Assembly: GCA_964402555.1 (NCBI GenBank)
Contig: CAYOCT010000003.1
Span: 125,146-189,145, forward strand
Reading direction: 5' to 3'
Length of the DNA: 64,000 bases
Source: an uncultured Nitrospiraceae bacterium
GTDB lineage: Bacteria; Hydrogenedentota; Hydrogenedentia; Hydrogenedentales; SLHB01
Position 1 is the stretch's first letter, and every line of letters starts with the position of its first letter. Shown here in pieces: positions 13,781 to 49,057 of this stretch. The notes under the pieces are model-generated. The model had not been told where the DNA came from. It made no database searches and saw nothing but the letters and a program-made list of their open reading frames with translations. The position numbers and the translations under genes are program-made.

Positions 13781-16336
13781 GTGGAAGCCCGCCGCGGGAA
13801 GAGGGGTGCGACGCATATGGCCGGTACGGAAGCGAGTAACGACGCGAACCGTTTAAGCATGGAAGACTTGAACGCCGGAGGGCGGTTCAAGGTCAAGAAG
13901 TATCTCAAGAGCGGCGGCATGGGCGACGTGTATCTCGCCGAGGACGACCTGCACCGCCGCGTGGTCCTCAAGACGATCCGCTCGGATAAGAACATGGACA
14001 CCGAGTTCCAGAAGCGGATCGAGCGCGAATGCCAGTTGCACGCCAAGGTCGGCACGCATCCGCACATCGTCACGCTGTACGACCGCACGACCATCCGCGA
14101 TCAGCAGGTCCTCATCATGGAATACGTCGACGGCGAGACCCTGCAGGAGCGGCTCGAATCGTACAAGAACCAGGGCAAGATCATCCCGTTGCACGACGCC
14201 CTGCTCATCGCGGCGCAATGCCTGGACGCGCTGTCGCGCATTCACGCGCACAAGATCGTGCATCGCGATATCAAGCCGGCGAACCTGATGCTGACGGTGG
14301 ACGAGGACAGCCAAATCTGCGCGAAGCTGATGGACTTCGGGATCGCGCGGCGCACGGAAGAGGAAACCCTGGCCACGTTCGCCACGGGCGACGGCAGCCG
14401 CGGTCCCGGCACGCCCGCCTATATGGCGCCCGAGCAGATCGATTCGCGCAAGTTCGGCCAGGTCTCCGAGGCAACCGACATCTATGCCGTCGGCGTCATG
14501 CTGTACGAGATGATCTCCGGCGCGACGCCGTTCACGGGAACGCTGACCGACGTCATGATCGGACACCTGACGCGCCAAGTGCCGCCCCTTCAACCGGCGG
14601 CGGGCGCGTTCGTGCCGGCCGAAGTCACCGACGTCATCAACATCGCGTTGAGCAAGAACCCCAAGAACCGATTCCCGAGCGCGAAAGCGTTTCGCGACGA
14701 ACTCAAGCAATTGCTCCAGGGCCAGGTGTCGCTCGATTCCGTAACGACGCCCGTGCAAGAGTTGAACTCGTTTCAGTTGGACGTCGACAACGCCATGACG
14801 CTGCCAACCTCGGGCCAGGCGCAAGCGCAGACCACGCCCGCGCCCGGACGCCTGGTTGCGCAGGCCCCGGCCGCTCCCGCGCAGCCGGTGGCGGAACGCA
14901 CGATGCTCTCCGGAAGCACGACGAACTGCGCGCCGCCGGCCCGCCGCAAAGGCGTGCTTGTCCCCGCGATCGCAGCCGTCGTGCTGCTCGGGTTCTGCGC
15001 GGTCTCCGGCGTGCTCATCTTCGATCGCCTGCGGCAGAAGCCCGAACCGGCGCCGGCCGCGCCGGCCACGCAGCCTGCGCCCGCCCCCGCGGCATCCGCG
15101 GAGCCCCCGGCGAAGGCGCCTGAAGCGCTATCGGGCGCGGCGCAGATCGAGGCCAGTTCGAAAGCCGAAGCCACGCTGAAAAATGCCAGCACCATGGAAG
15201 CCTCGCTGACACAAGAAGCGCGCGAACTCGCAGCGAAGGATGTCCAGGACGGCCACGACAGCATGGACCGCGGGCATAAGGCCTACGATTCTAAGGACTT
15301 CGTCAAGGCGCAGGAGGAGTACGACGCGGCCCTTGCCCATTTCAAGACGGCGTCCGAAATCCTGGCCAAGCGCGACGAAGCCAGCGTAGCGAAGACAAGC
15401 GCCGAAGCCGCGAAAGCGGCGCTGCCGCCCAATGCCGCGGAGGCAGCATCGAAAGAAACCGCCGACGCCGACGAGGCGTTCAAGAACGCAAACGACGCGT
15501 GGGATAAGCAGGATTTCGGCGCCGCGAAAGAGAAGTACGTGTCCGCCGAGGAGCAGTACGAGGCGGTGGCAGGCTTGGCCAACGGCTACACGGATGCGAA
15601 GGCCGCCAAGACGGAAGCGGAGTACGCCCACGAGAGAGTAGCGGGCAAGACTACGGATGCGGATATTCTCAAGTCGGCGAACGCGAATCTGGATCAGGGC
15701 GCCGAGGCCTGGGAGGCAAAGAACTACGACGCGTCGAAGAAGTTCTATAGCTTGGCCAAGAACCAGTATGACGATGCCGTCAAAGCGGGTGAAGCCCAGG
15801 CCGCCATGGCAGCCAAAGCGTCCGAAGCAGCCGAAAGCGTGAAGAAGTTGCAGGCGTCGGCCCAGTCCGCCAAGAACGCGATCCCGAACGAAGCCAAGGG
15901 CCTCGACGAGGTCAAAGCGGGCGACGCGGCCTTCGCCAAGGCCGAGGAAGCCATGGCCAGGCAAGACCTCCAAGGCGCCGGACAGCAGTATCAGACCGCG
16001 CTAAGCAAGTACGGCGCGGCGAGAAAGAAGATCGAGGCGGCGCGGGCGGCGCAACCGCCTGCCCCTGCCCCTGCCCCTGCAACGGCTCAAGCTGCCGCCC
16101 CGGCTCCATCGACCCAGGGAGGCAGCGCTTCGGAAGCGTTCTCAGCAGCCACGCAGAACCAGCCGCCTCCGCCCCCGCCACCTCAGCCCGCTTCGCCTCC
16201 GCCATCGCAATCGTCGGCTGCTCAGACGGTCACTTCGTCGCAGCCGGCGCCGGCGCCTCCGCCGCCATCCCAGCCCTCGCGCCCATCCGGTGGGAGTTCC
16301 AGAAGTGGCGGTCTTCGTAACAGGGCGGTGGACTAA
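13781..16336 (+). CDS. Ser/Thr protein kinase, membrane-anchored, with an extracytoplasmic Ala/Lys-rich repeat region and a Pro-rich tail
   Basis: Hanks motifs HRDIKPANLML, DFGIAR, GTPAYMAPEQ. TM helix VLVPAIAAVVLLGFCAVSGVLIF. Four approximately 45-aa repeats with a conserved (K/D)xxDFxxAxExYxxA core. C-terminal PAPAPAP/PPPPPQP low complexity. Confidence 0.85.
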   Translation: MEARRGKRGATHMAGTEASNDANRLSMEDLNAGGRFKVKKYLKSGGMGDVYLAEDDLHRRVVLKTIRSDKNMDTEFQKRIERECQLHAKVGTHPHIVTLYDRTTIRDQQVLIMEYVDGETLQERLESYKNQGKIIPLHDALLIAAQCLDALSRIHAHKIVHRDIKPANLMLTVDEDSQICAKLMDFGIARRTEEETLATFATGDGSRGPGTPAYMAPEQIDSRKFGQVSEATDIYAVGVMLYEMISGATPFTGTLTDVMIGHLTRQVPPLQPAAGAFVPAEVTDVINIALSKNPKNRFPSAKAFRDELKQLLQGQVSLDSVTTPVQELNSFQLDVDNAMTLPTSGQAQAQTTPAPGRLVAQAPAAPAQPVAERTMLSGSTTNCAPPARRKGVLVPAIAAVVLLGFCAVSGVLIFDRLRQKPEPAPAAPATQPAPAPAASAEPPAKAPEALSGAAQIEASSKAEATLKNASTMEASLTQEARELAAKDVQDGHDSMDRGHKAYDSKDFVKAQEEYDAALAHFKTASEILAKRDEASVAKTSAEAAKAALPPNAAEAASKETADADEAFKNANDAWDKQDFGAAKEKYVSAEEQYEAVAGLANGYTDAKAAKTEAEYAHERVAGKTTDADILKSANANLDQGAEAWEAKNYDASKKFYSLAKNQYDDAVKAGEAQAAMAAKASEAAESVKKLQASAQSAKNAIPNEAKGLDEVKAGDAAFAKAEEAMARQDLQGAGQQYQTALSKYGAARKKIEAARAAQPPAPAPAPATAQAAAPAPSTQGGSASEAFSAATQNQPPPPPPPQPASPPPSQSSAAQTVTSSQPAPAPPPPSQPSRPSGGSSRSGGLRNRAVD

Positions 16337-16363
16337 GTGGACTGAGTGGACGGGCAGCCGAGG

Positions 16364-17296: not shown

Positions 17297-17363
17297 AGGC
17301 GCGGGCAAGCCGTTCCGTCCACTGCGTCCACAACGTCCACTTCGTCCACCGTCGCAGGGGCAG

Positions 17364-20433: not shown

Positions 20434-21465
20434 CTACGCATCCCAATCGGTGAAGCGCCGCCGCATGAGCAAATAAAGGAAGAACGGGCCGCCAAACAAC
20501 GTCGTGACGATCCCGATCGGCGTTTCGCCGGGAAGGATCTTGCGGGCCAGGATGTCGCAGAAACATAGAAATCCCGCGCCCACCAGCATGCTCACCGGCA
20601 TCAGCAGGCGGTGCCGCGATCCCGTTATACTACGCACCGCGTGCGGCACGATCAATCCGACAAACCCGATCGTGCCCACAACCGAAACCGCGATCGCCGT
20701 CAATAGCGAACCGACCAGGAAGGTGATTACTTGAAGCACGCGGACGTTCACGCCGCGGCCCGCGGCTATCTCCGCGCCGAACCCGAGTTGATCGTACTTG
20801 GGCGCCTGGAGCAATAGAACTACCGCGCACGGCAGCACGCCCACGAACAGCTTGGATACGGGCGTGTAGCCGAGGACATCGACGCCGCCCATCAGCCAGC
20901 GGTCCATCATCACAACCCGCTCCGGGTCCGCGAAGTAGCGCATGAACATGATCCCGCCGTTTGACAGCATGCCCATGGTCACGCCGCCCAGCAACAGGAC
21001 CGACGGCGAGATGCGTTCCTTGCGCGCGGCGAGCAAGTACACGATGACGATATCGATCTCGGCGAACAGGAACGCGAAGACCTGGATTGTCGGAAGCCCC
21101 AACAAGCTCGCGCTTAGTCCGTAGCCCGCGGTCAAGACGGTCGCCGTCCACGCGCCGAACGCGCCCGCGCTTGCCACGCCCAGGGTGTACGGTTCCGCAA
21201 GCGGGTTGCGCAGCATCGCCTGGAACGCGCACCCCGCCAGCGCCAAGCCGCTGCCGACGATCAGCGCTGCCAACGTCCGCGGGAGGCGCTGCTGCATCAG
21301 AATGCCGAGCATCGGGGCCTGCGACGGCGGCAGGCCCGCGCGCCACTCCGCCCACGCTTGTCCCACGCTCACCGATTCCGTGCCCACGACAAGGGTCGAC
21401 ACGATCATCGCGACGCTCGCAAGCGTCAGCGCGACAACCAGCCAGGTGTGGGTTCGACGAACCAT
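20434..21465 (-). CDS. ABC transporter permease, FecCD/BtuC family (iron-siderophore or cobalamin type)
   Basis: MVRRTHTWLVVALTLASVAMIVSTLVVG… with about 9 TM helices, as in FecCD permeases. GAGGA RBS 8-12 nt upstream. The heptamer repeat tract begins directly upstream. Confidence 0.8.
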   Translation of the reverse strand: MVRRTHTWLVVALTLASVAMIVSTLVVGTESVSVGQAWAEWRAGLPPSQAPMLGILMQQRLPRTLAALIVGSGLALAGCAFQAMLRNPLAEPYTLGVASAGAFGAWTATVLTAGYGLSASLLGLPTIQVFAFLFAEIDIVIVYLLAARKERISPSVLLLGGVTMGMLSNGGIMFMRYFADPERVVMMDRWLMGGVDVLGYTPVSKLFVGVLPCAVVLLLQAPKYDQLGFGAEIAAGRGVNVRVLQVITFLVGSLLTAIAVSVVGTIGFVGLIVPHAVRSITGSRHRLLMPVSMLVGAGFLCFCDILARKILPGETPIGIVTTLFGGPFFLYLLMRRRFTDWDA

Positions 21466-21961
21466 CAGCAAGTCCTCGTGATTTTGGATTTTGGATTTTG
21501 GATTTTGGATTGATGCACCGCCTCTGCGTAATCCGGCCTGAATACTCGAATTCGCGGGCATACCGAGAAACGTAATGCCGAATCGTGATTGCAGCGTTCT
21601 TCTTCCACCGCGAGGCAATCCAAAATCCAAAATCTAAAATCCAAAATCCCCTGCTTATTCCCCAATCTTCTCTGCCCAACTACCCCATGAACGGTCCTTG
21701 ACAAGACAAGCCAATTGCAGCGAGCGTGATGCTGAATCGTGGCAATGTACTCGTCCACCACCGCAAGGCAATCCAAAATCCAAAATCCAAAATCCAAAAT
21801 CCCCTGCTTACTCCCCAATCTTCTCTGCCCAACCGCCCCATGAACGGTCCTTGACAAGACAAGCCAATTGCAGCGAGCGTGATGCTGAATCGTGGCAATG
21901 TACTCGTCCACCACCGCAAGGCAATCCAAAATCCAAAATCTAAAATCCAAAATCCCCACCC
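21466..21961. repeat. intergenic tandem repeat block: about 3 copies of a ~150-bp unit, each terminated by a (GGATTTT)4 heptanucleotide microsatellite
   Basis: Near-identical units around 21651-21798 and 21804-21958, plus a diverged copy at 21513-21650. Heptamer tracts at 21481-21512, ~21616-21650, ~21768-21798 and ~21927-21957 (bottom strand GGATTTT, top strand CCAAAAT, with occasional CTAAAAT variants). Confidence 0.85.
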
Positions 21962-22849
21962 TCATTTCCCTGCCTTCTCCGCCCAGATCAACGGCGCTCC
22001 CGTGACCGGATTGCGATGCACGCGGATCGGCGCGCCGTAGGCCCGCGAAAGCAGGTCCTCCGTGAAGACCGATTCCGGTTTGCCCGACGCGATCAGTTCG
22101 TGCGTCGACGCGAGCAACAGCACGCGGTCGCAGAATTGCGCCGCGAGATTGAGGTCGTGCGTGACCACGGCGACTCCGTAGCCCTCCGAAGCCAGGCGTT
22201 CGAGCAGCGCGAAGATCTCGATCTGGTGATGGATATCGAGCGCGGACGTCGGCTCGTCGAGCAGCAGGATGTTCGGTTCCTGCGCGAGGATGCTCGCGAG
22301 CAATACGCGCTGCCGTTCGCCGCCGGACAGCGTCAGGAAGTCGCGCGCGCGGAGGTCGTCGACGCCGGTGTCGCGCAGGCAGCGTTCCGCGATGTCCTTG
22401 TCTTGCGGACGTAGCGCGCCGAACGCGCCCATGTGCGGATACCGCCCGAGGCACACGACCTCGAACACGTTGAGCGCGAACGCAGGAGTCACGGATTGCG
22501 GCAGAAACGCGAGGACGCGCGCGCGTTCCATGCTCGCAAACGAGGCGAGCGAGCGCCCATCGAGCGTGACGCGGCCGGCATGGGGTTTCAACAAGCCGCA
22601 CAGCACGCGCAACAGCGTGCTCTTCCCCGATCCGTTCGGGCCGACCAGCCCCACCATCTCGCCGCTGTGCACCATCGCGTCGACGCCCTTGAACAAGGGG
22701 CGGCCCGCTTCGTAGGCGTAGGCGAGGGATTCGGCTTTCAACGCATGAAGCAGAGGCGGCTTTTCCGAAACCGTCCCAGGCATTGTTTCCGGCTCACGAT
22801 CCGGGACGGCTTTGGAGGAACCGCCCCCACTGTCATTGCACTCGCTCAT
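21962..22849 (-). CDS. ABC transporter ATP-binding protein, FecE/BtuD family
   Basis: Walker A GPNGSGKST, signature LSGGERQRV, Walker B ILLLDEPTSALD, H-loop. Start overlaps the stop of the upstream binding-protein gene (ATGA). Confidence 0.85.
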   Translation of the reverse strand: MSECNDSGGGSSKAVPDREPETMPGTVSEKPPLLHALKAESLAYAYEAGRPLFKGVDAMVHSGEMVGLVGPNGSGKSTLLRVLCGLLKPHAGRVTLDGRSLASFASMERARVLAFLPQSVTPAFALNVFEVVCLGRYPHMGAFGALRPQDKDIAERCLRDTGVDDLRARDFLTLSGGERQRVLLASILAQEPNILLLDEPTSALDIHHQIEIFALLERLASEGYGVAVVTHDLNLAAQFCDRVLLLASTHELIASGKPESVFTEDLLSRAYGAPIRVHRNPVTGAPLIWAEKAGK

Positions 22850-23727
22850 GATGGCGGTAAGAGTGCCTCAGGATGCAGATCCTTCGCAACTATCCGCGCG
22901 ATTTCCGCAACGCGCGGACCGGGCCGCGCCGCATACGATTCGAGCACGAGGTAGATCCGGCCCTTTTGTACCGCGGGCAGCATCGGGAGCTGCTGCCAGT
23001 CGGCGATGTATTGCGCTTGTTCCGATTCGCTGAGTTTCTCGCCCGCGTGCAGTTCGAGGATGACTTCCGGCTCGCGCACCACCACCGTCTCTTTCGAGGC
23101 CTTCAAGTAGTTCATCTCGGCATCCGCGAAAAGGTTGTCGCCGCCCGCGCACTCGACGACTTCCGAGATGAACGACGTCCGGTTCGCGGTATACAGGTTG
23201 TTAAGCGTGTGCTCCGTGCGCATCGTGATTATCAGCACCTTCGGACGCGGAAGACCCGCGACGGCCTTCCGCACGGCGTCGAGTTCCGAAGTGATCCGCG
23301 CCCGCAACGCATCCGCCTCACGCTCGCAACCCAGCGCCTTGCCGATCGTCGCGATGCCCGCGTCGATCGAAGCGAGGCTGTCCATGTTCACGTTCAGCAC
23401 GGGGATGCTCTTCAGCGCCGCGAAGTCGGTGACCTTCTGATGTTTTCCGGGAAGGATCAACAGCTCCGGCGACAACGACGCTATCTTCTCGAGATTCGGA
23501 TCGACGTAGCCCCCGGCTTTCGGCAGCGCCGCGGCCTCCGGCGGATAATCGTCGAACGATCCGACCGCCACCACGCGAGCGCCTTGTCCGAGCGCAAACA
23601 CCGTCTCGGTCAAATGCGGCGCCATGGTGATGATCCCCTTGCGCGGCGCAGGCGGATTGGCGGGATTGCTGCAAGCTTGGAGACAAACGGCCAAGATGGC
23701 AACGGATAGGTTGATTGAAATCTTCAT
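22846..23727 (-). CDS. ABC transporter periplasmic substrate-binding lipoprotein (BtuF/FhuD-like, class III)
   Basis: Signal peptide plus lipobox (MKISINLSVAILAVCLQAC). Fold pattern typical of iron-siderophore/cobalamin binding proteins. Confidence 0.75.
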   Translation of the reverse strand: MKISINLSVAILAVCLQACSNPANPPAPRKGIITMAPHLTETVFALGQGARVVAVGSFDDYPPEAAALPKAGGYVDPNLEKIASLSPELLILPGKHQKVTDFAALKSIPVLNVNMDSLASIDAGIATIGKALGCEREADALRARITSELDAVRKAVAGLPRPKVLIITMRTEHTLNNLYTANRTSFISEVVECAGGDNLFADAEMNYLKASKETVVVREPEVILELHAGEKLSESEQAQYIADWQQLPMLPAVQKGRIYLVLESYAARPGPRVAEIARIVAKDLHPEALLPPS

Positions 23728-31930: not shown

Positions 31931-32423
31931 ACTTATGCGATAAAGATTTCTTTTCAGGATAGGCAATGCGCCGCGCGATATGGGGTCGGGGGCGTGGCGC
32001 GGGAGATGGAAGTTCGTGGGCCGCGCCGACGGAGATAGCAGACATCCTTTACATCGATCGGCATGCCCTCTCTCCGTCTTGGTCGCCACCTGGATAACGC
32101 CCGGTTACCCTTGACCGGCTTGGGATAGCGGGTTAGACTATTTCTACGGTAAAGTCTGCATGGCAAAATGGGCTTAGCCGCGCGAGCTTTGGGTGCGGCT
32201 CGGATTGTGGGAGACGGCGCAGCGGCCTTCCGGCGCGCCGGAGGACAGGTGAATAGAGGAATAGGGCCACCCATGCAGACATACATGGCGTGCGCTCCGG
32301 CAAACATGAATCGTCTGCTATGCCTCGGAATGCGCGGAGGCCGGGGTCTAGAGTGATATACGTGCAGGGAGGCCCGTGTTCCGCGGGCGCCCGAGGGCAG
32401 GTTGTTGCCGAGGAGGAAAGGTC

Positions 32424-35400
32424 ATGCGTACGTCATCAGTGTTCCGTGGGGCGATCCTTGTCATTCTAGCGTCGATCGGGGGCATCGGATGCCCCTGGAT
32501 AGCGCCCAAAGCACAATTCGCGGCGTACCCGCAAAGCGGTATGGCCCCGCTCGAGGTCCAATTCACGGACCAGTCCGTTCCAGGCGTCGTTCCAATCTCG
32601 CAGTGGGCATGGGACTTTGGCGATGGCGGAACGAGCCGCGCTCGCAATCCCAAGCACACGTACTCCGCTTCGGGATCGTACACGGTCTCGCTTACAGTCA
32701 AGGGTTTCCTGGCCCAGAGCACGGCGGCCATACAGGACCTCATTCAGGTTTCGGGCGAGGGCGAAGGGGAAGGCGAGGGTGAGGGCGAGGGCGAGCAGCC
32801 TGTGTATTTTGTGGTCGGCGATCCGCTGAGCATCGCCCATGGCGCCTACGTGCTGCCGTTGACCAACGCGGACGATATCGCCCACGCGCGGGACGTTATT
32901 GCGGACCCGGCCAACACGGACATGCACATCGTGGTCGCGCGCATCGATCGCGGGGGAACCGAGGGAGAGTATACCAACTGCGATCCATACCATCCCGGAA
33001 ACGTCTGGTCGTGGCGCGTGACGGAATTCGTCGGGTTTGCCGACAACACCATCGAGATCCTGGATGGTTGGCCGCAATATGTCGAGGACAATCTGGATGC
33101 GTGGATGCAGGCTACCGGCGGCGAGATCGGATTCTGGAACTGCCGAGTCTTGTACGAATTGACGGACGGATGCCCCGGCGCCGAAGGCGAAGGCGAAGGC
33201 GAAGGCGAAGGCGAGGGCGAAGGCGAGGGTGAAGGTGAAGGCGAAGGCGAAGGCGAGGGTGAAGGCGAAGGTGAAGGCGAAGGCGAAGGCGAAGGCGAAG
33301 GCGAAGGTGAAGGTGAAGGCGAGGGTGAAGGTGAGGGTGAGGGCGAAGGTGAAGGTGAAGGTGAAGGTGAAGGCGAGGGCGAAGGTGAAGGTGAAGGTGA
33401 AGGTGAGGGTGAGGGTGAAGGTGAGGGCGAAGGCGAAGGCGAGTTGTTCTTGATCGGCGTCTTCCCTGCGGCGGGTTCCGGGGCCGGCGGTACACTTGTC
33501 TATATCCCCGGTGGCGGATTTGTTAGCGAGGGAACCACGCGCGTGCTGTTCGGCGACGCCGACGCGACCAACGTGCTTGTGGGTTCCTCCGATGGTGTCG
33601 ATTATGTGCAGTGTGTGACCCCGCCGCACGCGCACGGTACGGTGGATGTCACCGTCATCAATCCCGATGGCGCAAGCGCCTATCTGCCCGCCGCCTTTAC
33701 GTATCAGGACGCGCCTGCGGTGGCGTTCATCGAGCCGAATGCGGGGTCGTCGTTAGGCGGGCAGCATGTGACCGTCCGAGGCTCGGGTTTCATGAGTTCC
33801 GGCGCAACCAGGGTTACGTTCGGTGGCGCTGACGCAACGGAAGTTACCGTCATCGACGACGGTTACAATCCGCCGTTTGTCACGTGTGTCGCGCCACTGC
33901 ACGCGCCAGGCGTCGTCGACGTCACGGTCATCAATCCTGACGGGTTGCGCGGGACGCTCGCGAGGCGCTTCACGTATTTTTCACCGGTTTACATTCAACG
34001 CGATGGCCGCTATGTGACGAATGCGTCGGTCGGATACGAGGGCGGGCCGTTCTATCCCGACAAGGTGCCCTATGGCCTAAGGAATAGCCACACGGCAGCG
34101 CTAATGTACGACCTGAAGGTCACGAATGACATCCTGCAGATCGAGTTCCCGATGGGGCTTCCGCCCGTGCCCGGAATAACCGGTACCGTTGCCAGGGATA
34201 GCTATGGCACAACCTTCTTGGCGGATCTCGCGGACGATGTCGTCAACCGGCTCACTCCCGGAACATACCCGACCGGACTCCAGTTAACGAACGTCACGTT
34301 CCAGCAATTTGCTCAAGCCGAAGACATCTACCTGGACGTCCTGGATCGGAGCGAGCCGGGGCTTGAGGTCACTCCGAGGGAGGATTTCTATGCGGCGGGA
34401 CCTGTCGGCGGGCCATTCGAGCCCCTGGCGAAGATCTACCGATTCTACAATCCGGACCCGACACCGGTTGCGGTCAGCGCGTTCCTCGTGAACACGGACC
34501 GGTATCTCTCGCTTGACCCGTCGCGGTACGTGCAGGGCGTCGAAACAACCCTGGATGCGTTCCAGGCCATCGACGTTGGCGTCTATGTCGATCAGACGCT
34601 GACCGGCAGGCTCGATGCAACCGAACTTACCAACCAGCTCCGGTTCTACAACGCAACGCTGGGTAAGGTGGCCGCCGCCCGGATGATCTATGTGACCGTG
34701 TCTGAAGACGACTTCAGCGGCCTGTCGTTCGTCGACGTGCTTAACAACATAGGACAGAACACGGCATTGCTGGGCATCGCTCCGGAACCCGGTCTCCCCG
34801 AAGATGCCGACTACAATGGCCCAGGATGGTCTCCTGGGGATGCCCTGTCCGTCCATGTCAGCGGCAATGGAATGCCCGACGCAACCACGGAACTCAAGTT
34901 GATCGAGAATGTCCTCCATGATCGGTCCTTCTCCCTGCCGAACGGACTGACCCACGCGCGCGTGGCCAGCGCATGGCATGCCAATCGGCAGCGTCTTGCG
35001 CAGGACTTGGCCCCTGTGTGGGACATGTTCGAGGTCTTGCTGCCGGGGTTCCAGGATTTCCTCACCGGTATGATGATCATTGGCGACGGAGAGATGGATC
35101 TTTCAGACCCAAGCGTCGTGCGTTGGACCGGTTCGGCGGGCTTCGTTCAGGGGCTCCTGCATTCGTTCCGAGAAGTCTTCGGTATCGAAGACATCGACCT
35201 CAGCCATTACATTCGCATGCCGGAGTACTTCGCGTTCTATGGCGACGCGGACGGCGACGGCTGCAAGAACTACTTCGAGTACGTACGGAACTCGTGGGAC
35301 TTTCCCTACGATGTCATCGCGCTCGATCCCGCGTTTAACAGTGAGAACCTCTGCATGATCGATGTTGTTCCCTCGTCTAGGGCAGGAGGCACTTTCATCG

Positions 35401-38400
35401 GCTATCCGGAAGGGCCTTTCGAACCTGAGTCGTATTCGTACACGTTGACCAACCTCGCTGCCTCAGCCAGGACGTACGAGATCCGAAACAACTCTTATCT
35501 TGGGTTCAGGATGCCGGGGACGGAGATTGGAAGCCACTTTGTCCAGGGAACGCTGGAAGCCTATCAGGCTGTCGCTATCGAGGTGTACGTGGATGCCAAT
35601 GTGGCACGCACTCTGTCGGCTGGACGAAGTCACTCCGATTCCGTCCGCGTGATCAGTTCGGGCGGTTCGCTGTTTATCGGCGATAATCCCCCGTTCTTCC
35701 TCGACCTACTTGCGCCGGGAACAAGTTCCTTGCGCGTCACACCCGAGACCGATTTCCAGACCACGTTTCAGGCGGGCAGTTCGCTGGCGAGCACGTGCGC
35801 AACCTATGCGCTCGAAAACGTGACGTCAGCGACGATACGGTACGCGGTAAACCGCGACCATGCCGGAATCGCGTTCAAGCCTAGCCCGGGCGGCGTGCTT
35901 ACCAACGTCCTGTCGGGCGCCTTGGGCGCGATGCAATCCGTCGATATCCGCGTGTATCTCGATCCGTCGTCGCCGAATTGGAACTCGCCCGGGGAATACA
36001 GCAACGCCGTGACGTTCGTAGACGGGACGTTGAACGCCGTGGCGGCCACGCGGGGCGTCTATGTGGAAGTGACGCCCGCGCAGCCCGTGCTCGATTACGA
36101 TTTCACCGACTACTTCAACCGGGTACGCAACAATTCATTCGTCGCCTTGCTGCCCCCCGAGTATGGAAGCATCATGCTGATGCTGGATCCGAATACCGCG
36201 GACTTCAACGGCCCTTCGTCAATGAAGCTGAGTCCGCTCCAGCTCAATATTCAAGGCAACGGCATGCTGGATTGCCTGCACGAACTGGCGCTTGTCCAGG
36301 CGGTGCTAAATGACCCGAACTTTTCGCTGCCGAACGGCCTCACGCATCAGCGCGTCATCGACGCTTGGAACCAGAATATTGGCCAGTTTGCTGCGGATGT
36401 CGGCAGCTACTGGCCGATACTCGGTGCGTTGATGGACGGCCTGCCTCAGATTCTCAACGGCATGATGATCCTGGGAGACGGATCGGCGCAGACCTCGGAT
36501 CCCAACATGGTGATTTGGGACGGTTCCGCTGGATTCATCCAAGCGTTGATGAGCCTTCTCGGCGGGTACATCACGAATCCGACGATCGACCTCGACACCT
36601 ATGGCCGGTTGCCGGAGTTCTTCTCGAAAGATGGCGATGCCGATGGCGATGGATGCTCGAACTATGAAGAGTTCCTCGCCTACGGGTCCAATCCCGCGGT
36701 CTATGTCGCCAACGCGCTGAACCCCGACGTTCATCCGAGTGACTGTGCCGGTGAGGGCGAAGGTGAAGGTGAGGGTGAAGGTGAGGGTGAAGCCGCGTTC
36801 TGCGATTTCTGGCCGCTGGCAGTCGGGAATCAGTGGAACTGGAATGATGGCCAGGACAACGCCGAGACCTTCGAGATAGTCGATTTCTTCGTGGCGAACG
36901 GGTTCCGTGCGTGGCAGATGTACAACATGTTCTATGGGTTCGTCACAACGACCACGGTGCAGAATCTCGTCTTCGTGGACGGGTGGCTGTACGTTACGCC
37001 GGACATTGCGGACCTCGATGCGCTGCCCGCGATCACGGGCAGTCTCAAGGGATGGGTTCCCGAGGTCATGACGTGTGGCCAGTCGTTCTACTCGCCGTTG
37101 TTCGGCAAGACGATTACTCCGATGTGCTCGGGCGATACACTCTCCCTGTCGGTCGAAGGTGTGCCTGAGCCGCTGGTGCTCGAGCGCGGTCTCGGTCCGA
37201 TGAACTTCGGCGGGCTGGGCGGCACATACTCGCAGACGATTGTCGGCGGATGCGACACGGACACGGAGGACTTCAGCGCAGACCCCGGCGAGCAGCCGTT
37301 GAGCGGCGGCTCGTTTCCGATGGTCCAGTGGGTAAGCGGCGAGACGAGTACGGGTACGATCGATCTGAAGCCCGCAAGTCCCACCGTTCAGGATGTCCTC
37401 TACTTCAATCTTCCCACGAGCGTGTTCGGGCTTGCGGGTCTTGCGGAAGCCGCCGCGGGCGGCCATCCGAACCTCGTAGTCGACGCGCTTACCCATCGCG
37501 TCGAGTTGCGGTTCGTTCCGCCGGCCGCGCCGCCGGCAATTACGCTGTGGGATCCGGTGTGCGGTATGGAAGGCCACTTCGGCCCCATCGAAGCGGGCGA
37601 CTGGGAGTTCTTCTGCGACAATGCCCTTGTGCCCTTCTCGATGACGTTCCACGTCAATCCGGCAGAAGGCCAGGGCCAAGTCGCTTGGATTCCGGGAGAA
37701 ACGAGTCCAGGCGCATGGATGGTTCTGCCTCCGGCGCCCGTCGAATCGAGTCCGGTACGGTTTGAAGGCCCCATTCCCCTTCAAGGCAACGCGTGCCTCG
37801 CGACGGTCGCGGCGGGAGGACGTCCCGAACTCCATATCGATCAGGCCGCGCACACCATCGAATTGTGGTACCGCCCGCCCGCGCCGGACGCCTGCATCGA
37901 GGTCTTCGATCCCGTGTGCGGCCTGCGCGGCACGTTTGGATACTTGGAGGCCGGCACGTGGACTTTCTATTGCACGAGTCCGTTCTCGACGTTCAATCTT
38001 TCGTTCGAGGTCGCGCCCGCGGGCGGCGGTCCACCGGCGCACATGTTCTGCGACTACCTGCGCAGTCTCCTGAGCAATCAGCTCGTGGCGATGCTGCCCT
38101 CGGAATTCGCTGGCTCGATATGGCAACTTACGCCGGAGAATGTGGACTGGAACGGGGAATGGTCGATTAGCGCGGACGGCATTGCAACCTTGGGCTACAA
38201 TGGCAACGGCTTGCTCGACTGTTACCACGAGATGAAACTCGTCGAAATCGTCCTGAACGATCCTAACTTCCGGCTGCCCAACGGACTGACGCATGCACTC
38301 GTGCAGCAGGCTTGGGACACGAACGAAGCGCAGTTTGCCCGCGATGTAGGTTCGTACTGGGCGTTGATGCGGGCTCTGGTCGACGGATTGCCGCAAATCG

Positions 38401-41400
38401 CTAACGCCTACATGATCCTGGGCGACGGTTCCGCCACGCAAGACCCCGTTACAGGCGAAATCGTTTCCGAAGGTTCCGCGGGCCTGGTCCAGGCATTGAT
38501 GTTGACGCTCGGCTCGAACATTACGAACGCCCACATCGACCTCGCCAACTACGGGCGTTTGCCGCAGTACTTCTCGAAGTATGGCGACGCGGACGGCGAT
38601 GGATGCTCGAACTACGAAGAATTCCTGGCCTATGGTTCTGATCCCGATCGGTACGCTGCCAACGCGCTCAATCCCCGCGTGCATCCCATTTCATGCAGTG
38701 GGGAAGGAGAGGGCGAGGGAGAAGGAGAAGGCGAGGGTGAGGGTGAGGGTGAAGGTGAAGGTGAAGGTGAACCGCAAGGACTGTTCTGCGGCTACATCGA
38801 TCAGCTTCGCTCGAACTCGCTGCTTCAAATGCTCCCGGCCGAGTACCAACCGTTCCTGAACCTGATCGTGCCGGAAGCAGTCGATATCAACGGCAGCGCG
38901 TGGCTCGATCAGAACGGCAGCGCCACCTTCGATCTCCAAGGCAACGGCATGTTCGATTGCGTCTACGAGTTGCGGCTTGTCGAGGCAGTCATGGCTGACC
39001 CGGCGTTTGCGTTGCCCAATGGCTTGACCCACGCTTTGGTCCAACAGGCGTGGAACACCAGCGAGGCCCAGTTCCAGGCGGATATCGGCAGCTACTGGAG
39101 CTTGGCCGGCGCGCTTGTGCCCGGGTTGAAGGAACTCCTCAAAGGCTACATGTTGCTCGGCGATGGCTCGGCCGATCTCTCCGATCCGAATCACATTACG
39201 TGTCAAGGTTCGGCCGGGTTGATCCAGGCGCTGGTTTTCCTGATTGGCGACTATGCGATGAATCCCAACATCGACCTGAGCCAGTATGGGCGTCTGCCGG
39301 AGTACTTCTCGAAGGACGGCGACGCCGATGGCGACGGATGCTCGAACTACGAAGAGTTCCTCGCCTATGGTTCGGACCCGTTGGTCTACGTGGCCAACGC
39401 GCTCGATCCGAACGTTCATCCGGCGCTGTGCAAAGGCGGATCCGAAGGCGAAGGCGAGGGAGAGGGAGAAGGTGAAGGTGAAGGCGAGGGAGAGCCGCAG
39501 GGACAGTTCTGCGGCTATATCGATCAGCTTCGTTCGAACTCCCTCGTCCAGATGCTTCCCCCGGAGTATCTGCCCTATCTGGATCTGATCGTGCCGGAGG
39601 CAGTCGATATCAACGGCAGTGCGTGGCTCGATCAAAACGGCAGCCCGACCTTCGACCTCCAAGGCAACGGCATGCTCGATTGCGTTTACGAGTTGCGACT
39701 CGTCGAAGCCGTCATGGCTGACCCGGCGTTTGCGTTGCCCAATGGCTTGACCCACGCTTTGGTCCAACAGGCGTGGAACACCAGCGAGGCCCAGTTCCAG
39801 GCGGATATCGGCAGCTACTGGAGCTTGGCCGGCGCGCTTGTGCCCGGGTTGAAGGAACTCCTCAAAGGCTACATGTTGCTCGGCGATGGCTCGGCCGATC
39901 TCTCCGATCCGAATCACATTACGTGTCAAGGTTCAGCCGGGTTGATTCAGGCGGTGGTCTTCCTGATCGGCGACTATGTAGCGAATCCCAACATCGATCT
40001 GAGCCTGTACGGCCGCCTGCCGGAGTACTTCTCGAAGGACGGCGACGCTGATGGCGACGGCTGCTCGAACTACGAAGAGTTCCTCGCCTACGGTTCGGAC
40101 CCGCTGGTCTACGTGGCCAACGCGCTCGATCCGAATGTCCATCCGGCGTTGTGCAAAGGCGGATCGGAAGGTGAAGGCGAAGGCGAGGTCGTCCCGCTGT
40201 GCGACTTTCTGCCCCTCGCCGAAGGGAATGAGTGGAACTTCAATATACCTCTGATGGTGGGATCTGGCGGGCGCTTGGCAGTGACGGACCAGACCGAGTG
40301 GAATGGCGTCCGCGTGTGGGAGGTCGAAGAGGACACCTACGGCGACTTGACGACTTCTTCGTCGCTCTTGTACATGGCCTTCGTCGACGGATGGCTTTGG
40401 GCAACGAGCGCCGCCAATGACATCTACCAGCTTCCCGCGATCACGGGCAGTTTTCGACAGATGCTTCCCGAGACTGTTGTCAGCGGACAATCGTATTATC
40501 TTCCCGCGTTGTCCGTGACCGTCACGACGGCCCTGGAAAGCCCCGATGTCCTGAGCGCCCAGGTGCAGTACATGGGGCTGACCTTGAGCATACTCCTGGG
40601 CCGAGGCCTTGGATTCATCGACAGCGCTGTCATAGACGTGACCAGCGCGAGCATTGTGGGCGGCTGCGGCGACGGATGGAGCGGCAGCGGTGAGGGCGAA
40701 GGAGAGGGAGAAGGCGAAGGCGAGGGCGAGGGAGAGGGAGAAGGAGAAGGAGAAGGAGAACTTCCCAAGACGTTCTGCAACTACTTCCAGATGGTCCACG
40801 ACAACACCCTGCTCCAGGTGCTCCCGTCCGAGTATTTCTTCATCACGAACCTGTTGTCGCCCGATCAAGCTGATCTCAACGGAGACTCGTACGTGCAGTT
40901 GAATCCGTCGACCGAGTTCGGCATCAACGGCAACGGTATGCTCGATTGCGTCTACGAGATGAAGCTGATCGAGAAGGTCCTCAACGATCCGGAATTCGAC
41001 CTGCCCAACGGGTTGACCTATGCGCTCGTCCAGGCCGCATGGAACAAAAACGCTGCGCAGTTCGCGGCGGATGTCGGGCAATACTGGGGCTTGCTCGGCT
41101 CGCTTGCGAACGGCTTGCCGCAGATCCTCAACGCGTACATGATTCTCGGCGATGGTTTCGCGCAGCAGGATCCTTCGACCGGACGGATCGATTGCACCGG
41201 ATCGGCGGGATTGATCCAGGCCATCATGCTGTTGCTCGACGGCCAAATCGCCAACAGCCACATCGATCTCGATACGTACGGGCGCCTGCCGCAGTATTTC
41301 GCGAAGGACGGCGATGCCGACGGCGACGGTTGCACGAACTACGAAGAGTTTCTTGCGTACGGTTCCGATCCGGCGCTGTACGCAGCCAACGCCCTCGACC

Positions 41401-41942
41401 CGAACGTGCATCCCGATGCGTGCTCCGGTGAAGGCGAAGGAGAGGGCGAGGGTGAAGGTGAGCTCCTTGCAGTGTGCGACTACTGGCCTCTGGCCAAAGG
41501 CAACTACTGGCGGTGGCACACCGGTATGATTGACGCGGATGGCGGCGAGATTGCCGTGACCGATTCGAGCGTTGTCAACGGATTCAAGACGTGGGAAGTG
41601 AAGCTCTACGCTGACACAATCGCCGGGTTGTTGCCTCAACTGGACGTCTTTGTCGTCTTCGTCGACGGCTGGCTCTACGGCACGGATGTGCGCGCCGACC
41701 TCGACGGCTTGCCCGTCGTCGGTGGCGGGATGCAGCGCATCTGCCCGCAGACCATGCAATCCGGCCAAACGTTCACGTCGGATTACTTCGGCTGGCCAGT
41801 GACGGTCAGCGGCGGCGCATCTACGGTCCTGGTTTCGGTCAGTGGGTTCGGACCACTGTTCATCTTGTCCCAAGGCCAGGGACCGACAGCCGGTATACTC
41901 GGCGCTTTCGATCCTCCGGTTATCGTCGGCGGGTGCGAGTAG
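32424..41942 (+). CDS. giant (3172 aa) modular cell-surface lipoprotein: PKD domain, two IPT/TIG domains, repeated Ca-binding (DADGDG) modules, (Gly-Glu)n linkers
   Basis: AGGAGG RBS then ATG at 32424 ([23 protein letters not shown], lipobox). PKD-like segment (WAWDFGDGG…HTY…GSYTVSLTV). An 88-codon pure (GE)n run at ~33178-33443 and about 8 shorter GE linkers. IPT-like domains ([17 protein letters not shown]…[10 protein letters not shown]). Six copies of an approximately 215-aa module ending …[21 protein letters not shown]…NALNPxVHPxxC. Three copies of an approximately 160-aa module ([16 protein letters not shown]…). Two copies of an approximately 90-aa module. The ORF track starts at an upstream in-frame Met at 32376. 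Confidence 0.85.
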
Positions 41943-47941: not shown

Positions 47942-49057
47942 TTAGTCCACCAATTGAAGGCCGATCTCGTTGTTCATCTCGAAGCCCAACGCAGTAGGAC
48001 GAATCGCCAGCCCATCGTCCTCGATGAGACCGCGGGCGGCGAGCGTGGCGAGGTCAGTTCCGAAGTCCGAGAGGAGTGCTGTGCCGAAACGCCGCGCGTA
48101 AGCCGAATGGCGAATGCCGTCCCGAAGGCGCAGATGCTGGATCACGGTCTCGACGCGAATCTCGCGCGGGCTTAAGCGCAACGCTTCCATCTTGCCGCCG
48201 GGATCGCGAAGGTACGCTTCAAGCGCGGCGTGGTTGCGCGCGCGCACGCCGTCGAGAAACGAGTAGGCCGCGGGACCAAGTCCCGCGTAGGCTTCGTTGT
48301 GCCAGTAGATCAAATTGTGCCGGCACGTGTAACTGGGCCGCGCGAAGTTCGAGATCTCGTAGCGTGTGAAACCCTCGAGCAGCGCGTCCGCCCGTCGATA
48401 GAGCGCAAGCCACGTGGCCTCGTCCACGGCCTCGCCCGCGCGATCGCCGAAGGGAGTTCCTGACTCATAGGTTAATCCATAGGTGGAGATATGCGTAGGT
48501 TGATAATCCTGCGCCTCGATCAACGTTGCGTCCCAGGCATGGACCGGCATTGCGCCGAAGATCAGGTCCATGCTCCAATTGTCGAAACGTTCTGCGATAC
48601 ACGCGCACGCGCGGCGGGCGGTGTCGGCATCGTGGCGCCGGCCGAGATAGCGAAGCGCGCCGTCGTCGAAGCTCTGCACACCGAGACTCACGCGGTCGAT
48701 CCCGAGCGCGCGCCACGCTTGCGCCAGAGGCGCGGTAACGTCGTCGGGATTGGCCTCGATCGTCTTTTCGGCTCCTTCGAGATCGAAGCGCGCATGCAGG
48801 GCATCGAGGATGCGTTCGAGTTGCCTCGCTTCGAGGAGCGAGGGCGTCCCGCCTCCGAAGAACACGGTTCCGGCCTCGCGCGGCCCCTCGAACGCCGCGA
48901 TCTCGTTGCAGACCGCTGCGACGAAGGCCTCAGGCGGCGCTTCGGGCACGGCCTGGCTTACAAAATCGCAGTAAGGACAGCGCGTCCTGCAAAAGGGAAT
49001 GTGAAGGTACACGCCGAGGCGATTTTGGATTTTGGATTTTGGATTTTGGATTGACAT
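47942..49057 (-). CDS. hemW: radical SAM heme chaperone / coproporphyrinogen-III-oxidase-like HemW(HemN) family protein
   Basis: CxxxCxxC radical-SAM motif in LHIPFCRTRCPYCDF, then a HemN-like core. N-terminal codons 3-12 (SIQNPKSKIQN) are encoded by a (CCAAAAT)4 heptamer tract at 49021-49052. An alternative TTG start is at 49087. Confidence 0.8.
   Translation of the reverse strand: MSIQNPKSKIQNRLGVYLHIPFCRTRCPYCDFVSQAVPEAPPEAFVAAVCNEIAAFEGPREAGTVFFGGGTPSLLEARQLERILDALHARFDLEGAEKTIEANPDDVTAPLAQAWRALGIDRVSLGVQSFDDGALRYLGRRHDADTARRACACIAERFDNWSMDLIFGAMPVHAWDATLIEAQDYQPTHISTYGLTYESGTPFGDRAGEAVDEATWLALYRRADALLEGFTRYEISNFARPSYTCRHNLIYWHNEAYAGLGPAAYSFLDGVRARNHAALEAYLRDPGGKMEALRLSPREIRVETVIQHLRLRDGIRHSAYARRFGTALLSDFGTDLATLAARGLIEDDGLAIRPTALGFEMNNEIGLQLVD

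Follow-up and report, generated by a model that had tools for sequence, protein, structure and literature searches.

The 64,000-nucleotide stretch analysed here, referred to as the window (contig CAYOCT010000003.1 of assembly GCA_964402555.1, positions 125,146 to 189,145; 60.8% GC), carries an ABC importer operon in which the ATPase and permease genes are separated by 496 bp of repeated sequence at 21466–21961. This spacer is probably a lineage-specific insertion, built from a dispersed heptamer tract of fixed length, (GGATTTT)n, a member of the class of short intergenic heptamer repeats next to gene ends, and its arrival would have uncoupled the permease from the ATPase. The reading is carried by the anatomy of the block, its absence from orthologues, and the dispersal, length constraint and polarity of the tract, each of which was demonstrated. 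Comparison with published repeats indicates that the GGATTTT tract is a new sequence family in this known class.

The repeat block and the junction that it occupies

On the coding strand, which is the minus strand of the window, the order was ATPase stop codon, 6 nt, tract T1, body A, tract T2, body B, tract T3, body C, tract T4', 3 nt, GAGGA, 7 nt and permease ATG, and the block filled the ATPase–permease spacer exactly (table 1). Tracts T1–T3 read (GGATTTT)4GGATT on this strand. Each tract is a direct heptamer array without self-complementarity; T4' forms a 33-nt inverted repeat with the other tracts, with complementarity of 100% to T2 and 97% to T1 and T3. The GC content was 27–30% in the tracts and 54–57% in the bodies. 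Analysis with Tandem Repeats Finder returned an array of period 153 at 21605–21957 (2.3 copies, 97% matches) and, inside the spacer, four arrays of period 7 with 4.6–4.7 units each (92–100% matches across the tracts of the window). The heptamer dimer occurred 15 times in the window, against 0.01 expected from shuffled sequences. Units A and B, each consisting of a tract and a body, showed 4 differences over 153 positions, of which 3 fell in the body, and the two bodies were 97.5% identical.

An original prediction, made from the letters of the window, had placed a repeat block between the ABC ATPase and permease genes, and this was borne out by the Pfam matches and the spacer coordinates. The same holds for the predicted overlap of the binding-protein and ATPase genes, where the junction sequence reads ATGA from the end of the one to the start of the other. 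The three tandem copies of about 150 bp that had been proposed were reduced to the two near-identical 153-bp units, since the third copy shares only its tract and about 46 nt with A and B (about 78% identity) and diverges beyond. The heptamer tracts were of the expected size, about four units, but the block holds four of them instead of three. The last tract adjoins the permease ribosome-binding site as had been described, ending 3 nt before GAGGA; its inverted orientation had been overlooked.

Both genes flanking the block were intact, and the nearest named relatives of the permease were metagenome-assembled genomes (MAGs) of Hydrogenedentes/Hydrogenedentota. For the orthologous comparison, eight loci with permeases 76–81% identical to that of the window were used, representing four distinct contexts (L122; L123/124; L125/126; L127–129; L numbers denote compared loci). 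The order binding protein, ATPase, permease was kept in all eight. The ATPase stop codon overlapped the permease start by 1–4 nt (TGATG or ATGA) in the first three contexts, TGATG being the form in four of the loci, and in L127–129 a gap of 43 nt was occupied by a different repeat, a 9-mer. The GGATTTT tract was absent from all eight loci (about 47 kb of the relatives' sequence). Before the permease the window keeps ...GAGGACTTGCTGATGG, which is similar to the ATPase tails of relatives, such as ...GGAGCGCTGCTGATGG in L125, and its ATPase ends in PLIWAEKAGK, compared with ...HAGKERC in L125. Because the eight orthologous loci lack the block and several have overlapping stop and start codons, the comparison indicates that the block is a lineage-specific insertion which broke the translational coupling of ATPase and permease, and parsimony favours a gain in the lineage of the window. 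The claim that the block was inserted into the operon and that the permease was uncoupled thus agrees with the orthologues, which have no tract and in which the two genes overlap.

Arrays of the 9-mer type were also seen in the window, where two inverted arrays (GTGGACNNN) bracket about 1 kb at 16327–16351 and 17316–17349. A similar array (GGGACGNNN, about eight units) lies at about 4355–4431 of L127, exactly in the ATPase–permease gap, and is carried by L127–L129; the ATPase–permease junction therefore appears to draw short tandem repeats repeatedly in this lineage.

The 120-nt body was searched for separately. Sensitive blastn gave no further copy in the window or in 129 fetched loci, and blastn gave none in plasmids and phages. 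A query spanning the tract–body junction returned, from metagenome contigs of the Joint Genome Institute (JGI), only four chance matches, which lay within coding sequence and had no tracts. An origin of the body from the 3' end of the ATPase gene was also considered and was not relied on, the alignment of the body's own 3' end with it being marginal (p about 0.01–0.05). Although 153 equals 3 x 51, no convincing open reading frame (ORF) runs through the units.

Table 1. Positions of the features discussed, in window coordinates.
Feature	Position	Strand	Remarks
Peripla_BP_2 periplasmic binding-protein gene	22846–23727	−	Pfam E = 1.8e-27
ABC ATPase gene	21962–22849	−	Pfam ABC_tran E = 5.4e-31; protein ends ...PLIWAEKAGK, tail shorter than in relatives (L122, L123, L125 compared)
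Tract T1	21923–21955	−	33 nt, GGATTTTGGATTTTAGATTTTGGATTTTGGATT; begins 6 nt past ATPase stop codon
Body A	21803–21922	−	120 nt, non-heptamer part of 153-bp unit A; 57% GC; no second copy found outside the block
Tract T2	21770–21802	−	all-G variant; perfect complement of T4'
Body B	21650–21769	−	120 nt; unit B = T2 + body B
Tract T3	21617–21649	−	same A variant as T1
Body C	21512–21616	−	105 nt; first ~46 nt (21616–21571) homologous to bodies A/B, remainder unique
Tract T4'	21480–21511	+	32 nt; plus strand GATTTT...GGATT, inverted on coding strand (AAAATCC); 3' arm of 33-bp inverted repeat
GAGGA, Shine–Dalgarno sequence of permease	21473–21477	−	7 nt before ATG, 3 nt after T4'
TGATG	21463–21467	−	putative remnant of ancestral ATPase-stop/permease-start overlap, by comparison with L122, L125 and L126
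FecCD-family permease gene	20434–21465	−	intact, 343 aa; full-length Pfam match E = 7.2e-79; 100% of query covered by homologues
hemW-like radical-SAM gene	47942–49057	−	371-aa call starting MSIQNPKSKIQNRLGVYLHIPFC
Fifth tract	49021–49052	+	solo, no body; identical to T4'; 27 kb from block

The heptamer tract as a dispersed element of fixed length

The fifth tract of the window lies at the 5' end of a hemW-like gene, whose nearest named homologues were from Hydrogenedentota. Most of the hemW relatives listed are about 359–364 aa long, and, of eight N-termini compared, those of the seven shortest proteins read M-[ILV]-G-[LVI]-Y-[IL]-H-[IV]-PFC from the start; the eighth, P0143 (371 aa), has another N-terminal extension, of 12 residues. 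In the window, the coding strand reads ATG + T-CAATCC(AAAATCC)3AAAATC-GC + CTC GGC GTG TAC. This can be read either as a 36-nt in-frame insertion right after the ATG, which adds MSIQNPKSKIQN to the N-terminus if the upstream ATG is used, or as a tract 8 nt upstream of a GTG start, the old ATG having been lost. If the upstream ATG is the true start, gain or loss of one heptamer unit would shift the reading frame. Because this solo tract sits at an ORF terminus without a body, the insertable unit appears to be the tract itself.

The query GATTTTRGATTTTRGATTTTGGATT was used to scan one genome per species and gave at least 120 loci from about nine phyla, as judged from record titles. About half of the matches listed were cyanobacterial and about a quarter were from Acidobacteriota; the other taxa among them were Chloroflexota, Planctomycetota, Verrucomicrobiota, Rhodothermales/Saprospiraceae, Latescibacterota, Omnitrophota and one 'Proteobacteria' MAG. 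Among the same matches, the GC content of the loci ranged from 36 to 68%, and single genomes could hold several of them (for example, three in OZ245371.1). The architecture was also present in complete genomes, such as that of Calothrix NIES-3974. In IMG/VR, the tract was found in 38 stretches, compared with 17 and 6 for the reversed and permuted control heptamers, respectively. Arrays of tract and short spacer in tandem recurred at L084, L087, L095 and L012. The distribution of the loci is sporadic, and a literature search gave no bacterial report of GGATTTT heptamer repeats or of the dimer. The alternative named in the original prediction, a generic dispersed repeat, thus applies to the heptamer tract, with its many loci, and fails for the 120-nt body, which had no further copy in the sequences searched.

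Tract length showed a peak at 31–33 nt without decay, into which 87 of 160 tracts from other genomes fell (among the matches listed), together with 29 of 55 tracts from viral contigs; the five tracts of the window all had 4.6–4.7 units. Broad length distributions were obtained for the control heptamers and for 321 arrays of other heptamers in the fetched loci. The consensus was (G)ATTTT-RGATTTT-RGATTTT-GGATTTT-GGATT(G), about 31–33 nt. The inner end read ...RGATT in 142 of 212 tracts among the matches listed, and in 102 of these a G came next. The outer end was variable and began with ATTTT, GATTTT or a full unit, and internal units often started with A instead of G (about 35–45% of variable internal units). 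Two orthologous IMG/VR contigs, L169 (2500–2760) and L170 (2480–2740), are about 9% diverged and carry an identical tract, of equal length and with the A variant at the same place, which is not the behaviour of a freely slipping microsatellite. Repeats of the GTTCGTTGAGT type next to the tract vary in copy number in this pair. Given the uniform tract length, slippage-driven contingency is unlikely.

The tracts were strongly oriented with respect to ORF ends. Of 153 tracts among the matches listed, 90 had an ORF boundary no more than 30 nt away on the 5' side of the G-strand and 17 had one on its 3' side (binomial p = 3.5e-13), and the 90 were made up of 45 stops of same-strand ORFs and 45 starts of diverging ORFs on the opposite strand. 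When only ATG starts were counted, the numbers were 27 and 3, with 4% at random positions. Offsets to the ATG were mostly 0–9 nt, which leaves no space for a Shine–Dalgarno sequence. Adjacent tract pairs within 300 nt were G-arm first in 30 cases, A-arm first in 0 and direct in 14 (p = 2e-9). The outer tracts of the block follow this polarity, T1 lying 6 nt past the ATPase stop and T4' 14 nt ahead of the permease ATG, and so does the hemW tract.

Other short repeats were common around the tracts. Arrays of TAACTGA, GGGGATT and CAACAGT co-occurred with GGATTTT tracts in the fetched loci, and period 7 was dominant among the tandem repeats of L001–L120 (492 of 1083 Tandem Repeats Finder arrays). 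Many different heptamers abut GGATTTT tracts in L001–L120, several of them with a GGATT core (GGGGATT, GCGGATT, CGGATTT, AGGGATT). At L120:5690–6470, from a Rhodothermales MAG, tracts overlap stop codons (TAA followed by TTTTAGATTTT, and TGA followed by TTTTGG...), and one tract stands between co-directional genes, like T1 in the window; the inner flank CACCGTCATCTCAA is conserved among the copies of that genome, and one inverted pair encloses a terminator-like hairpin. In the orthologous Nostoc/Cuspidothrix intergenic regions L032:2300–2520 and L118:3120–3340, the tract-arm hairpin appears flipped, with the long arm on opposite sides, which suggests inversion of an imperfect palindrome. Elsewhere in the window, an ORF of 3188 aa at 32376–41942 (plus strand) contains many (GAAGGY)n hexamer arrays encoding (Glu-Gly)n, located at 32753–41461; the longest has 43.5 units (33182–33442), and the same hexamer occurs on the other strand at 416–630.

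Origin of the block and its effect on the permease

How the tract reached these sites was considered together with its distribution. The same sequence and length occur in about nine phyla and in viral contigs at 36–68% GC, the inner end stays constant and the outer one varies, and all 30 of the 30 inverted pairs have the G-arm first. On this basis it is tentatively suggested that the tract is a discrete unit which some as yet unrecognised mechanism actively inserts or templates at ORF termini; candidates are a tiny non-autonomous mobile element and a polar repair or reverse-transcription process resembling 3' extension. Independent slippage would hardly give such constancy of sequence and length across genomes of so different a composition, which speaks for a mechanism of recognition or insertion that they share. 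The window contributes two clean comparisons of filled and empty sites, at the coupled junction of the ABC operon and at the first codon of hemW. Both insertions look fresh, one lying a few codons before a stop codon and the other directly after a start codon, in frame; like the features of the tract just named, they are not accounted for by a passive microsatellite. Cross-phylum identity, fixed length and strict polarity are the features that make the tract worth following up.

For the importer operon we infer the following sequence of events, with recombination as the source of the 153-bp units, and the following effects on expression. The insertion would have hit the ATPase gene within its last few codons, shortly before the original stop, and would have supplied a new TGA; the stop/start overlap (TGATG) that couples translation of the two genes in relatives would thereby have been pulled apart. 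Unequal recombination or slippage between direct tract copies could then have duplicated the tract with its 120-nt body, giving the 153-bp tandem array. The permease would initiate independently from the retained GAGGA. Directly upstream of that site the transcript has about 0.5 kb within which pairing of the inverted tract with any of the three upstream tracts could form a duplex of 32–33 bp. In the predicted fold T4' paired with T2 over 33 bp, and the minimum free energy was −197 kcal/mol, compared with −173 kcal/mol for shuffled sequences (z = −3.3). Initiation at the permease is probably weaker than when it was coupled, and a 33-bp duplex is a plausible RNase III substrate. The most likely effect would be lower or uncoupled expression of the permease, possibly with RNase III-type processing; the practical result for the operon is that translation of the permease is no longer coupled to that of the ATPase. 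The block does not look like an on/off slippage switch, and it may simply be tolerated. No promoter or terminator-like site was found in 21300–22100, and no Rfam family, whether riboswitch, attenuator or leader, reached its gathering score in the window. The T3/T4' hairpin (21479–21649, minus strand) gave the only sub-threshold Rfam match, to the plant miRNA precursor MIR5998 (30.6 bits against a gathering score of 180), and this resemblance is that of a generic long hairpin, without homology.

Several points weigh against an insertion built from a dispersed tract. Within the source genome, dispersal rests on two loci with five tracts in 64 kb. The scan pattern needed at least 25 nt, and short tracts were consequently under-sampled. 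ORF calling in the loci obtained followed a crude rule (at least 100 codons) instead of a gene finder, which makes the absolute numbers approximate, the asymmetry of 90 to 17 being independent of that rule. The body had no further copy in the sequences searched, and the block is therefore not simply a copy of a larger repeat. Searches for an insertion mechanism, a target-site duplication and an associated enzyme found none. The effect on the permease is one that we infer from the arrangement of the junction, and selection for an unseen function could be what maintains the block.

A larger mobile unit is a distinctly unlikely source. As a MITE (miniature inverted-repeat transposable element), the block would have transposed into the junction with the 33-bp tracts as terminal inverted repeats (T4' with T3, T2 or T1) and would have undergone internal tandem duplication later. 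The perfect 33-bp inverted repeat that bounds the block, its clean absence from orthologues, the single orientation of inverted pairs (30:0), the spread of the tract over several phyla and viral contigs, and one Rhodothermales MAG with homologous sequences beside its tract copies would all suit such an element. No target-site duplication abuts the block, however (...GAGGGTGG precedes T1 and ACGAGGAC... follows T4', the shared GAGG being non-adjacent), and none was seen at the hemW site or in L008. None of the collections searched holds a further copy of the body, hemW holds a solo tract with neither partner nor body, only ordinary genes and no transposase lie between the arms of L120, and an outer end that varies while the inner end is fixed is the opposite of transposon termini. 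Rather doubtful is the view that the block is a selected intercistronic RNA element, whether a processing or stability determinant (RNase III acting on the 33-bp duplex, RNase E on single-stranded GGAUUUU) or a translational regulator which sets the ATPase:permease ratio. The predicted duplex ends 3 nt from the Shine–Dalgarno sequence and the predicted fold is more stable than shuffles, as given above; elsewhere the A-rich strand replaces the Shine–Dalgarno region 0–9 nt upstream of the ATG in most start-adjacent cases; and GGAUU presumably fits the RNase E motif RN/WUU, so that single-stranded GGAUU would match the preference of that enzyme. A translational role was proposed by MacGregor for TAACTGA repeats (PMC4679880). 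Against this, the relatives use direct coupling without a block, the window has no Rfam family match beyond the hairpin described above, no body homologues were found that could show covariation, and polarity regardless of gene orientation points to a rule at the DNA level rather than the RNA level (PMC4692102).

The original prediction had taken the tracts for a classical slipped-strand contingency motif, and a phase-variable locus or a variable-number tandem repeat, in which slippage in the tracts or a changing number of 153-bp units tunes the permease, is now very unlikely. Heptamer tracts and 153-bp direct repeats are in principle substrates for slippage and unequal recombination, the 97% identity of units A and B suggests recent duplication, and a change of one unit could alter the frame at hemW as noted above. 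The claim is not supported, in view of the uniform number of units in the window, the 31–33 nt mode across phyla and viruses, the identical tract in the orthologous pair about 9% diverged, and the intercistronic position of the block tracts, which lie outside ORFs and are not spanned by a promoter-like site. The genes next to the tracts, a FecCD/ABC importer and hemW, are housekeeping or transport genes rather than surface, virulence or host-interaction genes, and published heptamer families likewise have no surface or virulence link (PMC4692102). Modulation of transcription or translation by a two-tetrad G-quadruplex, formed from four or five GG runs, is highly improbable. About 4.6 units do provide four or five GG runs in the window tracts, and Rehm et al. 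found a four-unit preference and the same positional rule (PMC4692102), but the G runs are only two long, A replaces the first G in roughly 35–45% of variable internal units, and many tracts are left with only one to three GG runs; the tract family therefore does not conserve a G-quadruplex. An assembly artefact, by collapse or mis-joining of a repeat in the metagenome-assembled contig, is scarcely credible. Tandem repeats are error-prone in short-read assemblies of DNA from uncultured organisms, yet units A and B differ at four positions and the third unit differs from both, the genes on either side are complete and keep the orthologous order, and the tract architecture recurs in complete genomes. 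Two further candidates were rejected. In a CRISPR array, direct repeats of 28–37 nt would alternate with unique spacers of similar length, whereas here 120-nt segments, 97.5% identical to each other, stand between the 33-nt tracts, one of which is inverted. A REP/BIME (REPIN) element was set aside since the tract is not itself a 20–40-nt imperfect palindrome.

Relation to known repeat families

Knowledge of short heptamer repeats next to gene ends goes back to 1990 for cyanobacteria and to 2015 for Xanthomonas and Beggiatoaceae. Of the other element types compared, MITEs resemble the block in its size (170–476 bp), its 33-bp terminal inverted repeats and its being missing at orthologous sites; they differ in that the block has no target-site duplication and no other copies of its internal sequence, that hemW carries a solo tract and that the outer tract end varies. 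REP sequences are imperfect palindromes of 20–40 nt linked to RAYT transposases, and REP/BIME hairpins sit between the cistrons of operons such as malEFG. The block is likewise a repetitive extragenic element between ABC importer cistrons, with a potential RNA hairpin and the possibility of differential expression. In contrast to REP, the GGATTTT tract is non-palindromic, and the hairpin predicted here arises only from two opposed tracts about 100–400 nt apart.

Mazel et al. are said to have described, in 1990, short tandem heptamers (STRR) as abundant in filamentous cyanobacteria, and Elhai et al. (2008) reportedly observed that very small dispersed repeats of 21–27 nt behave as insertions without a known transposase. 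The GGATTTT tract recalls the STRR sequences in that about half of its loci are cyanobacterial (among the matches listed) and that STRR3-type CAACAGT arrays occur there. It differs in that the window comes from a non-cyanobacterial genome of 61% GC, and GGATTTT is not a named STRR unit as far as was checked.

The TAACTGA repeats described by MacGregor (2015; PMC4679880) occur as two to six tandem direct copies, placed within a few nt upstream of start codons, in marine Beggiatoaceae, Cyanobacteria and Bacteroidetes, and their patchy spread across phyla was taken to suggest horizontal transfer, with no known vehicle. Both families consist of a specific heptamer that is intergenic and stands a few nt before starts, where a Shine–Dalgarno sequence would be, and TAACTGA arrays are present in the tract loci. 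The unit sequence differs, and TAACTGA is mostly 'forward' upstream of starts, whereas GGATTTT occurs with equal frequency behind stops and ahead of starts. TAACTGA has almost no inverted pairs (one in BOGUAY), compared with 30 within 300 nt for GGATTTT.

The closest description is that of Rehm et al. (2015; PMC4692102), who reported GGGAATC and GGGGAYT heptamers in Xanthomonas and Nostoc with a preference for about four units. These repeats were located 'almost exclusively' nearer to the 5'-neighbouring ORF, whatever its orientation, that is, behind the stop on the coding strand and ahead of the start on the non-coding strand; they are dispersed over the genome, mostly in non-coding sequence, and showed no association with mobile elements or particular gene classes, and inverted copies could form stem-loops (PMC4692102). 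The GGATTTT tract, which seems likewise to be dispersed and mostly non-coding, shares with them the tandem arrangement of a 7-nt unit, the number of about four units, the lack of a tie to mobile elements or gene classes, the same rule for the 5' ORF and the stem-loops of inverted copies, and GGGGATT arrays co-occur with it. It differs in being T-rich with GG only, in having no conserved G-quadruplex, in its tighter length (31–33 nt) and in its range, which covers about nine phyla and viral contigs as opposed to two lineages.

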